DNA from: Desulfuromonadaceae bacterium
Lineage (GTDB): Bacteria > Desulfobacterota > Desulfuromonadia > Desulfuromonadales > JAHYIW01
NCBI GenBank assembly: GCA_019429445.1
Contig: JAHYIW010000001.1
Coordinates: forward strand, 85,336-149,335
DNA length: 64,000 nt
Reading direction: 5' to 3'
The position numbers were made by a program, and so were the translations under genes. The notes below the pieces were generated by a model. The model saw only the letters and a list, made by a program, of their open reading frames with translations. It searched no databases and had not been told where the DNA came from. This document shows, one piece after another, positions 3,256 through 62,648 of the stretch (the first letter of the stretch is position 1; each line of letters opens with the position of its first letter).

Positions 3256-4128
3256 ATGAGTACCCTGGCTTTCATTTTGATTCTGTCCTCCGCCCTGATG
3301 CACGCCCTCTGGAATCTGCTGGTCAAGTGCAGCCGTGACAAGACCGTTTTTATCTGGTGGATGTTTATCGCTTCCGGCGGCATGTTGAATCTTCTGGTTT
3401 GGAGCCTGCCTGCGCCGTTTCCGCCACTGACCCCGCAGATTCTCGTCCTGAGTGCCGGGGGGGGTGGTTGTTTTGTGCTTTATCATCTGCTTACCGGGCG
3501 GGCCTACCGTGATGGCGATCTGTCGATGACCTATCCGCTGGCCCAGACGGCGACCGCCTACGTGCCGATGTGGGGGGTGTTGCTGCTGGGTGAGGAGCTG
3601 TCCGTTGTTGGTCTTGGCGGGATCTTCCTGATTCTCGTCGGTGTCTACAGTGTTCAGTTGCGACGCCCGTCTCTCGATGATGCGCTGCGTCCATTGCGTA
3701 ATCTGCGCAACCCCACGGTGCAAGCGGCGCTGGCCGCTGGTTTTGTCTACTCGATCGGTGCCGTTTTTGACAAGCGCGGGGTGCTTTCGTACCCCCCTTT
3801 TTATTTTACTTATCTGCTCGTGATGGCGATGCTCCTGTTTATGTCCCTCAATCTGCTGCGTTCGCGCTATCGGGGGCGTGTGCTGGCGGAGTGGCAGTGC
3901 AGTCGCCCGCTCATCCTCCTCTCCGGACCGGTGATGATGGGGTCTTTTCTGACCTTTCGCTATGCCCTGACGATCACCCCGCTCAGCTATGCCGTTCCGG
4001 CAAGGCAGGTCAGTTTGCTCTTCGGCATCCTGCTCGGTGTCTATTTTCTTGGCGAATCGTTCGGTCGTATTCGCTTTATCGCCGGTCTGCTGGTTTTGGC
4101 AGGGGTTTTTCTGCTGCGCCTGGGGTAA
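3256..4128 (+). CDS. EamA/DMT family transporter
   Basis: About 10 hydrophobic helices; 'LMHALWNLLVK', 'GDLSMTYPLAQ', 'LGESFG' DMT motifs. Confidence 0.9.
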   Translation: MSTLAFILILSSALMHALWNLLVKCSRDKTVFIWWMFIASGGMLNLLVWSLPAPFPPLTPQILVLSAGGGGCFVLYHLLTGRAYRDGDLSMTYPLAQTATAYVPMWGVLLLGEELSVVGLGGIFLILVGVYSVQLRRPSLDDALRPLRNLRNPTVQAALAAGFVYSIGAVFDKRGVLSYPPFYFTYLLVMAMLLFMSLNLLRSRYRGRVLAEWQCSRPLILLSGPVMMGSFLTFRYALTITPLSYAVPARQVSLLFGILLGVYFLGESFGRIRFIAGLLVLAGVFLLRLG

Positions 4129-4202
4129 TGTCTGTACGGTGCTGGCGATACGCATTAAGGGAAACGCCATTTTATTCTTCAGTCAGATTAAATATTTTTT
4201 CA

Positions 4203-4246
4203 TTGACACGTCAATCATCTGTCGTTATATAGTTATGGTCAGACCA
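4203..4246 (+). promoter_or_regulatory. Sigma70-like promoter of rnf with a FadR-subfamily GntR-type palindromic operator
   Basis: TTGACA at 4203, AT-rich -10 region about 4226-4233, and palindrome TGGTCAGACCA at 4236-4246. Confidence 0.6.
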
Positions 4247-49443: not shown

Positions 49444-49485
49444 ATTAGTCAACAACTAAAACTTAATAGACCGGCAAGTACGCGT

Positions 49486-49603
49486 CTTTATCAAGAGTGG
49501 TTAAGGGACAGGCCCGATGACACCACAGCAACCGATTCGCAGTAGCGAATGTCAGGTGCTAATTCCTGCCTCGCGGTTAAATTTCAGCGAGGAAAAGATG
49601 AGG
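49486..49603 (+). ncRNA. SAM-I (S-box) riboswitch aptamer
   Basis: TTATCAAGAG...AGGGACAGGCCCGATGA...CAGCAACC...AGGTGCTAATTCC...AAAGATGAG in S-box order, directly upstream of methionine biosynthesis genes. Confidence 0.95.
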
Positions 49604-49639
49604 ATGGCGCTTCGCGATATGGCTAGCCATCCCTCCACG

Positions 49640-51037: not shown

Positions 51038-52189
51038 ATGACGACAAAAAAATACGCCGCCGCCACCCTCCTCGTCCATCAGGGGCGCGACCGAGACCCG
51101 GCCACCGGTGCGTCAGCAATTCCGATCTATCAGGCGTCGACCTACCATCATACCGATGGTGTGCCGGGCGAATACGATTATTCGCGCTGCGGCAACCCGA
51201 GCCGTGATCAGGTCGAAGAGGCGATCGCCCTGCTCGAAGGCGGGGTGCGCGGTTTTGCCTGCGCCTCAGGAATGGCGGCGATCGGCAGCGCCCTGTCGTT
51301 GCTCAAGGCGGGTGATCATCTGATCGCCCCCGAGGATCTTTACGGCGGCTCCTACCGCTACCTGACCCAGATCCTGCCGACCCAGGGGATCGAGGTGACC
51401 TTTGTCAACACGGCCGAACTGGCCCAGATCAAGGCGGCGCTGCGCTCCAACACCCGCGGCATTTTTCTGGAGACGCCGTCGAACCCGCTCTTCAATATCA
51501 CCGACCTGCGCGCGGTGGCGGCGCTGGCGCGTGAGCGTAAGCTGCTGACCTTCCTTGACAATACCTTCATGACCCCGCTGCTGCAACGCACCCTCGATCT
51601 CGGTATCGATGTGGCGATTCACAGTGCGACCAAGTTTCTCGGCGGCCACAGCGATCTGCTCGCCGGGCTGGTGACCACCGCCGACGAAGGGCTGGCGCGA
51701 CAGCTGAAAACCTTCCAGAATTCTTTCGGCGCCGTTCTCGGCCCCTTCGATTGTTTTTTGCTGGCGCGTGGCATCAAGACCCTCAAATTGCGCCTGGAGG
51801 CGGGGCAGCACAACGCCGATGTCCTCGCCGCACGGCTGGCGGAACATCCGGCGGTCAGCCGCGTCTACTATCCGGGGTTGGCCGATTTTCCCGGCCGCGA
51901 GCGGCACCTCTCCCAGGCCTGCGGCGCGGGGGCGGTGCTCTCTTTCGAACTGCGCGACGCCACCTGCGTCAAGCCGTTGCTGGCACGGGTCAAGTTGCCG
52001 ATCATCGCCCCGAGCCTCGGTGGCGTTGAAACGATCCTCACCCACTGCTGGTCGATGTCGCACGCGGCGATGCCCGCCGAGCTTAAAACCCGCCTCGGTA
52101 TCGGGCCGGGATTGTTGCGCATCTCCGCCGGGATCGAGGATGTCGAAGATCTCTGGGAAGATCTGGCGGCGGGGTTGGCGGCGGACTGA
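51038..52189 (+). CDS. Cystathionine beta-lyase (MetC-like)
   Basis: 'IYQASTY', 'YDYSRCGNP', 'HSATKFLGGHSDL', 'SLGGVETIL...MSHAAMP'. Confidence 0.86.
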   Translation: MTTKKYAAATLLVHQGRDRDPATGASAIPIYQASTYHHTDGVPGEYDYSRCGNPSRDQVEEAIALLEGGVRGFACASGMAAIGSALSLLKAGDHLIAPEDLYGGSYRYLTQILPTQGIEVTFVNTAELAQIKAALRSNTRGIFLETPSNPLFNITDLRAVAALARERKLLTFLDNTFMTPLLQRTLDLGIDVAIHSATKFLGGHSDLLAGLVTTADEGLARQLKTFQNSFGAVLGPFDCFLLARGIKTLKLRLEAGQHNADVLAARLAEHPAVSRVYYPGLADFPGRERHLSQACGAGAVLSFELRDATCVKPLLARVKLPIIAPSLGGVETILTHCWSMSHAAMPAELKTRLGIGPGLLRISAGIEDVEDLWEDLAAGLAAD

Positions 52190-57477: not shown

Positions 57478-58469
57478 ATGGAATTCACGCGCGAAATATA
57501 CTGGAATGTTGGCAACTCGGCGGGCGTTCTGGTGCCGATGTATCTGCTGACATTGATCGCCTTCGCGGCGCTCGGTTACGGATTCTGGAAGCGCATCACG
57601 GTCTATCGTCAGGGGCAGGCACTGGATCGAACTGATCAGTTTGAACGGCGGATCGTTGCGGCGCTTCGCGATATTCTGCTCCAGCGGCAAGTGTTGCGGG
57701 TGACCGGGCCGGGCGTGGCCCATGCCTTCTTCTTCTGGGGCTTTTTACTCCTCTTTATCGGTACCTGCCTGATCGTGATCCAGGTTGACTTTAGCGATCC
57801 ATTGTTCGGCGTTAAATTCCTTCGCGGGACTTTTTACAAGCTCTTTTCGATCACTCTTGATCTCGCCGGTCTGGTCGCGATGGTGATGCTCGGGGGACTC
57901 TTTGTCCGTTGCTACCTGGTGCGCCCGGAAGGGTTGGAAAACAAGTCTGACGACCTGTATATGCACACGATGTTGTTCGCGATTCTGCTGAGCGGGTTCG
58001 TCATCGAAGGGGCGCGGATGGCGGTGACCGAACTCGCTACCCCGTTGGCGATCTTAGCGTCTTTCTGGAACGGCTTCTCGGTCAGGGGCGGTTGAAGTTC
58101 AGCCATGCTGCGGCGTCGAACTGCACCTATCACGACTCCTGTTACCTTGGACGCTATAATGATATTTATACAGCACCCCGCGTGCTCCTTGGCGCGGCCG
58201 GGATCACGGTCACTGAAATGGCCAGGAATCAGGTCGAAAGCTTCTGTTGTGGTGCCGGGGGCGGGCGGATCATGGCGGAAGAGAAACTCGGTACCCGGAT
58301 CAGTGCAACGCGGGTGAAGATGGCGGCGGCAACGAACGCTTCCACATTGATTTCGAACTGTTCCTTCTGTTGGACGATGTTTGAAGACGGCGTCAAGGGG
58401 GCCGATCTGGAAGGGCAGCTGGCACCGAAAGATATCGCTGAAGTTTTGGTGGAACAACTGAACAGCTGA
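57478..58469 (+). pseudogene. FadF-like membrane Fe-S oxidoreductase (ETF:menaquinone oxidoreductase type), internally deleted and frameshifted
   Basis: N-terminal NarI-like membrane part ('TREIYWN', 'HAFFFWGF') joined out of frame near 58050 to the last CCG domain ('TYHDSCYLGRYN', 'FCCGAGGG'); ferredoxin and first CCG domains missing. Confidence 0.85.
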
Positions 58470-58636
58470 GTTTTAATCACGGCGGAAGAAATTTAAGGTC
58501 AAAGGCAATCGGGCGCTGATCAAAGCGGATTTAAAATCGAGAGTTTTAAGACTCTCCGTGTTCTCCGCGACAGCTGTGGTCAGCGTTCCTGGTGATGAAA
58601 ATTTGTGGTTCAACCCGCTAGAGTCGGAGGTTCATC

Positions 58637-59407
58637 ATGAAAATTCTGGTGTGTATCAAACAAGTTCCGGATTTGGAATCGAAATTCCAGGTAAATGCCG
58701 CAGGGGTCTGGTACGACGAGACCGATCTGGCCTGGCGGATGAACGAGTATGATGAATACGCGGTGGAGCAGGCCGTGCAGCTGAAAACACAGATCGGCGA
58801 AGAGGCCGAGCTGAGCATACTGTCGATCGGTCCCGACCGGGTTAAAGAGACGATGAAGAAGGCGCTGGCGATGGGGTGTGATCGGGGGGTGCATATTCAG
58901 GATGCCGCCAGCTTCGAAAAAGGGCCGTTCGAAATCGCTGCGGTGATTGCCGAGTTCGCCAAAGATAAAGGGTTCGATGTGATCTTTACCGGGATGCAGT
59001 CGCAAGATCGCGGTTCGGCGCAAGTTGGCGTACTGGTCGCCGAAATGCTTGGCATAGCGGCGCTGACAACCGTCGTTGAATGTGTTTACGCGGACGCTAC
59101 GATCACCGCCAAACGCGAGCTGGAGGGGGGCGTTCGGGCGCAGGTCAGGGTCGCGACTCCAGCGCTGATTACGTGTCAACTCGGACTCAACACTCCGCGC
59201 TATCCGACGCTGCCGAACATCATGAAAGCCAAAAAAAAGAGCTGCTCAGCGTTCCGGTCACCGAATTGCTGAACGTCGAAGGCCTGCTCAACACCGAGCA
59301 GTTTTACTTCCCCGAGAAGAAGGGGGGGGCTGGTGCTCGAAGGCGCGGTGCCCGATCTGGCCGATCAGTTGATCGCGATTCTCAAAGCGCAGACCACCGT
59401 CCTGTAA
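58637..59407 (+). pseudogene. etfB: Electron transfer flavoprotein beta subunit with two homopolymer frameshifts
   Basis: 'MKILVCIKQVPD', 'PRYPTLPNIMKAKKK'; frame shifts at the A8 run (59231-59238), continues as 'ELLSVPV...FPEKK', and returns at the G run (59322-59329) to 'LVLEG...TTVL*'. Confidence 0.8.
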
Positions 59408-59455
59408 AGAACGGATGAGGGTAATTGCGCAGTCTTTGTCCAAAAGGAGATGCTT

Positions 59456-60370: not shown

Positions 60371-60570
60371 TTGGACGGGGAGGGGAGGCCGCAACTTCAA
60401 TAGTTATTGACCCTGCCAGCTTCTGGCAAGGGTTTGTAATCACGGAAGTAATCGCTCGTCTATCTTCAACTCGAAAGGAGGGTTTGCTTATCGTCAAGAA
60501 GGCCGTTTGTGAGGTAATGGCATATGCAAAACGTATCATCAACCACGTCATCGTGCTTTGGGAGCGCCAC

Positions 60571-60625
60571 CTCCCTTCCGGGCTTAGCCCGCTGATGAGC
60601 TTGTGAAACCCAAGCGAAAAGGAAG
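60571..60625 (+). ncRNA. Type III hammerhead ribozyme (predicted cleavage 3' of C60578, triplet UUC)
   Basis: Stem III CTCCCTT/AAGGAAG (one C-A mismatch), stem I CGGGC-TTA-GCCCG, core CTGATGA (60592-60598), stem II GCTTG-TGAAACC-CAAGC, core GAAA (60616-60619). Confidence 0.8.
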
Positions 60626-60673
60626 CTGAGACACCATGTGCCCAACTTTTCAAGCAAGAAGAGTAAAAAAGTA

Positions 60674-60736: not shown

Positions 60737-60915
60737 AAGCCCGGCCATAAGGCCCTCTTAGGGGGAGTTTGACTAAATTGTCGTTTGTCAAAGTTGTTGA
60801 CCTAACTGCTTGATATGTAATAGAGTACTTGGTCAAATGTGGTTTGAGGATGGCCACACGGGTAGTCAAGATATATCGTGGTACTATTGACCTTGGTTGC
60901 TTTTTATATACAGAC

Positions 60916-61338
60916 ATGGCTAGAAGACACACAAATAATCCTAAGCGTAGAATTGCACCTCAGGGCGAGTTAAATGAAGCGCAGAAGGAGAAATTGTGCG
61001 AGACTTTAAGGTATGTTGGAAGTGCACTGCACAAGCGAAATCCTGGGAATTATGGGTTTCATCCGCCCATCAACCCCCGGCCCCACAAGTCGCTTTGCGA
61101 CGATATGCGTTTAATTTTATTGGAAGAGGCTCAATCGCTTTTTGAGGCTGGGATCAAAAAAGGCATGGTAAGCACTTATAGGCAAGATGGTGTGCCCAAA
61201 TATGTCTGGAGTGTTGATGAATTTGGTGAGGTATACGAGTCTAAAATTGGCATCGATGGTTTCCATGGTTACCGGTTGAATGATGATAATGAAAGCTTGA
61301 TGCGAAGCATAGTGTTGAGTGAATGGGCTTCGAGATGA
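60916..61338 (+). CDS. Hypothetical 140-aa protein (putative nuclease-type toxin)
   Basis: 'YVGSALHKRNPGNYG...PRPHKSLCD...PKYVWSV...GEVYESK...FHGYRL'; AT-rich codon usage; ATGA overlap with the next gene. Confidence 0.7.
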   Translation: MARRHTNNPKRRIAPQGELNEAQKEKLCETLRYVGSALHKRNPGNYGFHPPINPRPHKSLCDDMRLILLEEAQSLFEAGIKKGMVSTYRQDGVPKYVWSVDEFGEVYESKIGIDGFHGYRLNDDNESLMRSIVLSEWASR

Positions 61339-62648
61339 ACGAAGAACTAAACATATTTATGAGTTGGGAGAGGCTTGAAGAGGGTAGCCAAGCTGAAAAG
61401 TCCTGCTTCGGCCAGCTCAATATTGCTCATAGGAGTAGGTACCTTAGCGAAGGTATAGATGGTTATGTTAACCGTCTTCGGAATGGCCCGCTTGTTTCAG
61501 GTTACCATTTTGCACAATGGATAGCTTGGAACTGGTGGCGATTAGTGAGTGAACCTAAGCCACTAAAGTTGACTCCTGAATGGGGCTTTGCGCACTCTCT
61601 TTCATCAATCGGGGAGGGCTATATTTGGCCCAGGATTACAATTTTTTCAGACCGTGAGCGGACAGTCCTTCTTGCAAAGCCAACGCAGCCGGAAGTTTTT
61701 ACACCATTTCGATTCACGGCAGATATGGTTACTGTTATTCCGACGAGTCAATTTGAAGCAGCAATTGATAAATACATTGCACAAATACTGGGTCAGTTGC
61801 GATCAGAAGGTGTTACAAATACATCTCTTGACAATATCTGGGAAGAGGTTTTGTTAGAGAGGAAGGAACCAGATACAGCATTGATAAGACGCTTAGAAGC
61901 GTTGTTGGGTGTTGAACCTGGTGAGCTTGATGATACTGGGACTAAGCAAATTTGGTTGGATGCATTTAGCCTCGGCCATGACGCTATCTTTGAAATTGCC
62001 GCTGGGCATAAAAATCACGGAGTCTTAACCTCTGAACAAATTGAGAATTTAGCTAAAACATACGGTCGTGATACTAAGCAAAGTGACTATGTCAGGCTTT
62101 CGCAATTTGATCATTCTCAGAGAGCAAGCATGCCTGCTTGGAAGTGTGGGGTTGACGCTGCTGCTTCGCTTAGAGAGCAGGAAAGGCTTGGGCAAGGACC
62201 GTTGTCCAATGATAAGCTGGCAGAAATGTGCGCCACGACCGTAACGGTGCTCAATGATGCAACTGATAATGTAGATTTTGCATTTAGCATGGATGATATA
62301 GCAGGCTCTGTGGGAAAGGTTGTTCTCCGTTCTAAATGGGAAGCAGGGCGTCGTTTTGAACTAGCACGATTATTAGGGGACAGGCTTACAAATTGCTTAG
62401 ATGAGCGCTTGCTACCAGCGACACGTTCATATACTTATCGCCAAAAACTCCAACGAGCTTTTGCAGCAGAGCTTTTATGTCCATATGGGTCGCTAATTGA
62501 AAAGCTTGACGGTGATTTTTCTGGTGATGCAAGAGAAGACGCAGCGCATTATTTTAATGTTTCAGAAAGAACCGTTACGACATTGTTGGTCAATCATCGA
62601 GATTTAGATCAAGATTACCTAGAAGATATAGACGAAATTGCAATTTAA
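61335..62648 (+). CDS. Hypothetical protein with C-terminal ImmA/IrrE-like metallopeptidase fold lacking HEXXH
   Basis: 'GRRFELARLLGD' where IrrE/ImmA proteins have RxRFTxAHELGH; 'QRAFAAELLCP'; HTH-like 'AAHYFNVS'. Confidence 0.75.
   Translation: MNEELNIFMSWERLEEGSQAEKSCFGQLNIAHRSRYLSEGIDGYVNRLRNGPLVSGYHFAQWIAWNWWRLVSEPKPLKLTPEWGFAHSLSSIGEGYIWPRITIFSDRERTVLLAKPTQPEVFTPFRFTADMVTVIPTSQFEAAIDKYIAQILGQLRSEGVTNTSLDNIWEEVLLERKEPDTALIRRLEALLGVEPGELDDTGTKQIWLDAFSLGHDAIFEIAAGHKNHGVLTSEQIENLAKTYGRDTKQSDYVRLSQFDHSQRASMPAWKCGVDAAASLREQERLGQGPLSNDKLAEMCATTVTVLNDATDNVDFAFSMDDIAGSVGKVVLRSKWEAGRRFELARLLGDRLTNCLDERLLPATRSYTYRQKLQRAFAAELLCPYGSLIEKLDGDFSGDAREDAAHYFNVSERTVTTLLVNHRDLDQDYLEDIDEIAI

Follow-up and report, generated by a model that had tools for sequence, protein, structure and literature searches.

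A type III hammerhead ribozyme in a Desulfuromonadaceae genome belongs to a family of mobile two-hammerhead cassettes with a candidate endless reading frame

The role of hammerhead ribozymes in bacteria is an open question according to the available part of PMC6155905. Clustered prokaryotic hammerheads that flank genes are already known, and the accessible text of that survey raises the possibility that their products are spliced or circular (Perreault et al. 2011, PMC3088659). Retrozymes, as described in the available portion of PMC7229834, are eukaryotic non-autonomous retrotransposons with repeated copies of one ribozyme in genomic DNA, and RtcB circularises their hammerhead-cut RNAs at 30-80% in vitro. 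Zeta viruses, as far as the accessible descriptions go, are small rod-like RNAs with hammerheads, an endless ORF and a length in threes; they lack a DNA form, and both of their polarities bear ribozymes and ORFs. In the synthetic Tornado design, two ribozymes and a closing stem reportedly present the RNA ends to RtcB. Looped translation of circular mRNA works in vivo in another synthetic system, loopable translation, by the excerpt of PMC8554844 at hand. In DRT2, a system with a reverse transcriptase and concatemeric cDNA, the gene for Neo is completed across a junction; the accessible account relates that a length divisible by three, the lack of stops and a ribosome-binding site were used to find it (PMC12039810).

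We analysed a window of 64,000 nt, the whole stretch of DNA under study, from a Desulfuromonadaceae bacterium (contig JAHYIW010000001.1, positions 85,336 to 149,335), in which a sequence-only reading had picked out a type III hammerhead. The ribozyme belongs to a cassette family, and we give a probability of about one half to the reading that an intact cassette cuts out an RNA of ~225 nt, which would be ligated to a circle and translated endlessly into a repeating, likely toxic hydrophobic protein. The window holds the following features:

60401-60646, plus strand: remnant of a two-hammerhead cassette, 95.5% identical over 246 nt (11 substitutions) to a cassette of Sulfuriferula sp. (locus L025)
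60403-60578, plus strand: surviving part of a stop-free frame, a hydrophobic segment followed by a helical region, matched by profile A4 (E=4e-25 in its own genome)
60477-60492, plus strand: putative internal ribosome-binding site GGAGG (60477-60481) and start position (60490-60492), ATC here and ATG in L025
60546-60573, plus strand: 3' arm of the closing stem; its partner in intact copies is the 5' end of the excised RNA
60571-60625, plus strand: type III hammerhead ribozyme, predicted to cut after C60578, which is after base 2 of a conserved-frame codon
60681-60749, plus strand: degenerate attC-like site of another cassette, with altered core boxes and a weak fold (z -1.7)
60916-62648, plus strand: unrelated accessory gene pair encoding a hypothetical protein of 140 aa and a protein of 437 aa with weak RmrA/ImmA-IrrE-like similarity

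The core elements of the ribozyme lie where the sequence-only reading had placed them: the cleavage triplet U60576-U60577-C60578, stem I (60579-60583/60587-60591), CUGAUGA (60592-60598), stem II (60599-60603/60611-60615) and GAAA (60616-60619), giving the type III order of CUGANGA, GAAA and NUH with three stems. Stem III, proposed as CUCCCUU/AGGAAG, is present but shorter, with three pairs only and then a C60573-A60623 mismatch. The Rfam model that the reading had named (Hammerhead_3, RF00008) does match, at 60579-60618 across stems I and II and the core (31.1 bits, E=1e-4), but below its gathering score of 48.5, so that a gathering-level Rfam scan misses the ribozyme; the type III half of the homologous locus L024 reaches 52.1 bits against the same model. 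A type III descriptor (core CUGANGA, GAAA, NUH, three stems) found one match in the 2.9-Mb genome and none in 100 shuffled 64-kb windows. When 24 type III copies were aligned, 97.8% of cells paired and 9 of the 13 pairs carried two-sided changes, a number equalled by none of 500 shuffles, and controls in which the alignment was slid gave 0-2 such pairs. We conclude that the type III hammerhead at 60571-60625 is real. In the window its predicted stem III probability is ~0, and 60560-60635 reaches its lowest energy in a fold other than the hammerhead (z -1.2); a local hairpin (60560-60564/60571-60575), predicted here because the partner arm of the closing stem is absent, competes for the 5' strand of stem III. 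At the base of stem II, U-U replaces the usual G-C in 6 of the 24 type III copies (L035, L037, L042, L044, L047 and L050). A related type III hammerhead, preceded by a long perfect hairpin, was seen in a Berkelbacteria MAG (L023, 3307-3361, minus strand), with neither a type II partner nor the family ORF found near it.

The sequence-only reading had further suggested that the ribozyme may be part of an undescribed mobile module on the plus strand beside an attC-like site, and this was borne out, the module being the upstream stretch that matches L025. The window copy is without the type II hammerhead, the first 47 nt of the excised RNA, the start codon and an attC of its own, and its 3' end is the cassette's inverse core site (60640-60646), the sole cassette core site left in the window. 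No type II half was found in the assembly (best blastn E=0.79), and an integron-integrase homologue is present in the same genome on another contig. Judged by its sequence, the window copy is the broken 3' half of a mobile cassette and, being truncated, is probably not a working regulator here. The adjoining attC-like site is indeed there, but it is degenerate and belongs to a different cassette; it shares 88-97% identity with sites in four relatives and 84% with a second site in its own genome. That second, more diverged site (L016, 4568-4623, contig C23) lies near an MmeI-type methyltransferase fragment. Directly 3' of the window site are the first bases of an element, known from relatives, that combines a tyrosine recombinase with an IS91-type transposase. 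Four relatives (L017-L021) have this element immediately 3' of the same attC-like site, and in L017 it carries Pfam PF04986, PF14319 and PF00589, which suggests an attC-targeting or cassette-borne mobile element.

A scan of 185,579 genomes with the exact type III motif gave four loci; L026, a chance match to the type III pattern, and L023, a type III hammerhead without a cassette, were left out of all counts. In viral contigs the long exact pattern had no match, and the three matches of a short pattern were all chance matches within coding DNA. In L025 the matched stretch forms an integron cassette: its core sites match, an attC follows it (hairpin z -4.6), and a type II hammerhead stands in its 5' part; it lies a few cassettes away from an integrase-family gene and adjoins a SEFIR cassette, and no promoter or terminator consensus was found in it. 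L024 carries the same pair of ribozymes, and the type II halves of L025 (46.0 bits) and L024 (42.6 bits) both exceed the gathering score of RF02276 (37 bits). In the family's type II ribozyme, additional bases follow the CUGAUGA core. Scans with the type II motif alone yielded 2 loci from a viral collection and 23 from metagenomes, and a type III ribozyme lies 219-243 nt downstream in 24 of these 25; the contig of the remaining locus ends 57 nt after the cut. The family architecture is a type II hammerhead, 219-249 nt, and a type III hammerhead. Profile searches extended it to 85 clusters when grouped at 50% identity, or 110 when grouped at 90%, with source names that include Amphritea, Pseudoalteromonas, Nitrotoga, Pandoraea and Rhodocyclus; G805 and G813, weak profile matches with internal stops, were treated as noise.

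The family is rare and patchy: it was seen in 2 of 401 genomes from the phylum of the window, in 1 of 121 from one family and in 2 of 351 from the order to which L025's genome belongs, with one credible match in 400 genomes of L025's class; there are one or two copies per genome and no tandem arrays. GenBank phages gave no match, and plasmids gave one truncated copy, L032 (~4000-4150), which breaks off next to IS21 genes on a plasmid of Acidithiobacillus caldus. In another damaged copy, L069 (~1455-1760), the type II core is mutated and the frame shifted; cassettes of this family decay often. Our set of 26 distinct complete copies (23 found by pattern, three by protein profile) excludes both of these, three exact duplicates and L052, whose contig ends. 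An exact complementary core-site signature was found in 7 of the 26, compared with 15 of 650 cross-locus pairs, and the 19 without it include copies near integrases, a relaxase or IS elements. Neighbours include SEFIR, CAP12-type TIR, SLOG, a retron RT, PDC-S29, integrases, a relaxase and IS elements, and no constant partner gene was found among 91 neighbouring ORFs of at least 110 aa at 23 loci. The only reverse transcriptase among the 91, of a type IX retron, ends just upstream of an intact cassette (L041, 3-890).

In 24 of the 26 copies the piece between the two cuts is divisible by three and free of stops when its ends are joined (21 of 23 pattern-found and 3 of 3 profile-found copies; 219-249 nt, seven lengths); the two exceptions, of 229 and 224 nt, are each one base off. 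Shuffled middles stay open in ~2.6% of cases. A single sense frame is open in all 21 pattern-found copies with the property. About 60% along the piece, in the middle of this frame, lies a GGAGG-type site followed by AUG, and the corresponding Met is the sole invariant column in 49 diverse proteins and the most conserved position in 183 homologous proteins (present in 180). Upstream of this start, differences by codon position run at 0.45/0.32/0.56 and single changes are about equally synonymous and non-synonymous (1043 vs 991); this pattern of substitutions indicates that the upstream stretch is under coding selection. It codes for a segment that is hydrophobic (best 19-residue hydropathy, median 1.6). 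At the cut, 176 of the 183 proteins have S, Y or F. The predicted protein has three helices (pLDDT 67, pTM 0.30), and the unit matched nothing in Pfam, PADLOC, NCBIfam, PDB folds or the Atlas.

The first and last ~30 nt of the piece pair with each other; of the 23 predicted folds, 21 leave 5+5 bases free (median z -4.6 relative to arms that were shuffled; 97.8% of closing-stem cells paired). In the 23 pattern-found copies, whose 5' arm the search pattern fixed, the closing stem has no two-sided changes and fails to beat a shuffle control (98/500); compensations, judged by eye, appear only in L059 and L061. This stem buries the upstream AUGs; 22 of 23 copies show the internal site to be more open. 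Predicted stem III probability stays low in intact copies as well, with a median of 0.05; with the 5' arm it is higher in 10 of 23 and lower in 2.

Both kinds of ribozyme were known before; the cassette combines two hammerheads with one frame running through both. The clustered hammerheads of PMC3088659 share its catalytic cores and likewise occur as tandem ribozymes in mobile DNA, but in the available text they flank whole, variable genes, whereas the cassette has one conserved frame that loses its stop on cutting, starts midway and closes in frame. Four short cassette motifs had no match in the text of that paper's supplements, where gapped alignments could hide one. The likeness to DRT2/Neo, within the accessible account (PMC12039810), extends to a gene completed across a junction, a stop-free unit in threes (found in 24 of 26 copies), a conserved ribosome-binding site and start, and a hydrophobic repeat without known domain. 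No DRT2 reverse transcriptase adjoins the cassette, however; its repeat would come from a ligated RNA circle in place of concatemeric cDNA, its unit is 73-83 aa compared with ~40 for Neo, and its defence role is a proposal from context and analogy. The cassette shares with zeta viruses the rod-like form, the hammerheads, the endless frame and the length in threes but, in contrast to what is described for them, is encoded as DNA in bacterial contigs, is open in sense only (antisense frames in 0 of 21 copies) and would form a circle without a complete ribozyme. As in retrozymes, genomic DNA with two hammerheads would release an RNA, there of 170-400 nt; the cassette differs from the available description (PMC7229834) in being bacterial, coding and often integron-moved, with two ribozyme types and one or two copies where retrozymes have high-copy or tandem repeats with identical terminal hammerheads. 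Tornado and loopable translation are synthetic, by the descriptions available, and the cassette would be their natural counterpart. Intact copies can have the complementary core sites and downstream attC of an integron gene cassette, and L025 beside SEFIR resembles the small promoterless cassettes of integron anti-phage stores, although the accessible part of that review mentions no RNA-circle system (PMC13434031). The cassette thus falls outside zeta viruses, DRT2 and retrozymes, yet works like a mix of them. Literature searches, whose reach stopped short of subscription papers and bioRxiv supplements, returned no description of a two-hammerhead cassette.

The ligases of carrier genomes and the RNA data bear on whether the piece is closed. 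RtcB is absent from all five carrier genomes, of which three have damaged copies and two have a stated completeness. It is present in 112 of 121 genomes sampled from the window's phylum, the RtcB-negative carrier counted, and in 52/61 (order), 53/61, 12/41 and 21/41 genomes of the kin samples, each including its own RtcB-negative carrier; with carriers excluded, RtcB is missing in 8/60, 7/60, 28/40 and 19/40. The naive product of these kin frequencies, with 28/40 used twice, is ~0.004, a post hoc figure for n=5, and congeners without the cassette also lack RtcB. The PF09414 ligase was absent in 4 of 4 carriers, and a T4 Rnl1-family search matched none of four carriers, nor its positive control. 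The pattern fits a cassette that is tolerated only by hosts unable to close the circle, with an incoming ligase as the trigger; it is compatible, too, with there being no circle. Four RNA runs, of 24 listed, were compared with L025 at the level of contigs, and no back-junction was seen. Contig X3 (4038-4233) lies wholly within the predicted piece (4022-4246) and stops 13 and 16 nt before its ends; contig X1 of the same study begins at 4234 and reads through the second cut and ribozyme; this is a weak hint, from one study, of linear excised RNA. Contigs X5 and X7 span cut sites and may be precursor or DNA. Among 184 proteins there was no junction peptide or tandem repeat, and longer proteins gave only two matches, both single units.

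The excision of a discrete RNA by the intact cassette appears very probable, and a circle with endless translation is, in our estimate, moderately probable. The mid-frame start and the selected coding stretch upstream of it are both what a circle predicts. It counts on the other side that the in-frame junction is one ancestral event, arising by chance in an estimated ~1 in 4 cases, and that a linear ORF from the type II-core AUGs would also hold lengths in threes. This is the strength of an alternative that we consider unlikely, in which the product is a linear membrane peptide of ~74 aa made from those AUGs on the uncut transcript, the ribozymes are off-switches that destroy the mRNA, and the internal start gives a shorter inhibitor or a second product. 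It would account for the coding selection, too, without a circle. Gene callers annotate just this ORF in ~180 proteins; of the Mets in the type II core, the second is retained by 42 of 43 unbiased cases, 117 of ~182 tails end at the same stop (9 aa), and contigs of uncut RNA or DNA exist. Yet the stop lies past the second cut and varies, with tails of 1-76 aa; the AUGs themselves are largely core and stem bases inside the closing stem, and they have no conserved ribosome-binding site at a usable distance, a GAGG being 15-18 nt off inside a stem and lost in L061. A linear peptide also leaves the 5'-3' closing stem with its overhangs, and the absence of RtcB in carriers, unexplained.

The same frame and structure evidence would serve a circle that arises constitutively, the RNA ligating itself or being closed by some non-RtcB ligase of the host, and that has a selfish or non-defence, retrozyme-like role. 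Retrozyme monomers self-ligate at 1-3% in vitro in the available part of PMC7229834, and the lack of a constant partner gene suits such a role, but the missing back-joints and the linear look of X3 count against it, as do the absence of PF09414 and the low copy number without arrays, and we regard it as quite unlikely. X3, the missing back-joints and the want of RtcB and PF09414 ligases in carriers speak for an RNA whose final form is the excised linear rod, be it a stable small RNA or a ribosome-stalling non-stop mRNA, and which is never ligated; this leaves the amino-acid selection upstream of the conserved start unexplained, and we hold it to be improbable. The partnership with the downstream toxin-like gene pair that had been proposed from sequence, in which the hammerhead would process or regulate the pair as one module, is very improbable. 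It has proximity in its favour (~340 nt, within the same low-GC islet) and possible read-through from the upstream etf genes, where no terminator was found, but it is largely refuted by the lack of co-occurrence in either direction: the pair has no tblastn match in any other cassette-bearing locus, and neither of its two relatives in a set of 200 genomes from the order is flanked by a hammerhead core, to a distance of ~1.5 kb each way. The ribozyme goes instead with the upstream cassette (60401-60646), and a weak, separate promoter-like site (60797-60826) lies between hammerhead and pair.

For the preferred reading, a circle translated endlessly, the tandem hammerheads, length in threes, stop-free junction, paired ends, mid-frame start with its ribosome-binding site, mobile contexts and truncation of the window copy are features of the sequences themselves. 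A mechanism may be proposed as follows. The two ribozymes of an intact ~350-bp cassette would release the ~225-nt RNA, whose paired ends would act as a bait resembling a broken tRNA. A host without RtcB would leave this bait open, and a phage-borne RNA-repair ligase would seal it into a circle with an endless reading frame; rolling-circle translation from the internal start would then produce a toxic membrane polymer and abort the infection, the whole being a defence system with a protein-free sensor. RtcB joins ends like those of the excised RNA and ATP-grasp ligases do so after end healing, and jumbo phages carry RtcB and the ATP-grasp ligases Rnl1 and Rnl2, according to the accessible text of PMC7824862. 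Defence triggered by a phage ligase is a tentative proposal, drawn from genomic context and analogy.

The family gives a concrete candidate role for bacterial hammerheads. A real circle would mean a natural bacterial gene that comes into being only once its RNA is circularised and that gene callers do not see, as they annotate a linear 74-aa ORF in its place. It would also be, after Neo itself, the second way to make an endless toxin of that kind, here with no reverse transcriptase, and would give zeta-virus-like coding circles a counterpart encoded in DNA. Were a phage ligase to set it off, phage counter-defence by tRNA repair, as presented in the available part of PMC7824862, would become the alarm.

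The downstream pair (60916-62648) is a possible uncharacterised two-gene accessory system. It recurs together in G909 (41% and 31% identity), and the 140-aa protein falls in unnamed Atlas clusters at 0.95-0.97; the 437-aa protein apparently lacks an HExxH motif. Upstream of the islet, the plus-strand operon at 57478-59418 looks decayed, with etfB frameshifted near an A-run (~59229-59238) and the preceding CCG-domain oxidoreductase gene split in two short pieces. Elsewhere in the window, a SAM-I riboswitch (49485-49604, plus strand; RF00162, 77.8 bits) lies ~1.4 kb upstream of an ORF (51038-52189) that is cystathionine gamma-synthase-like by translation.
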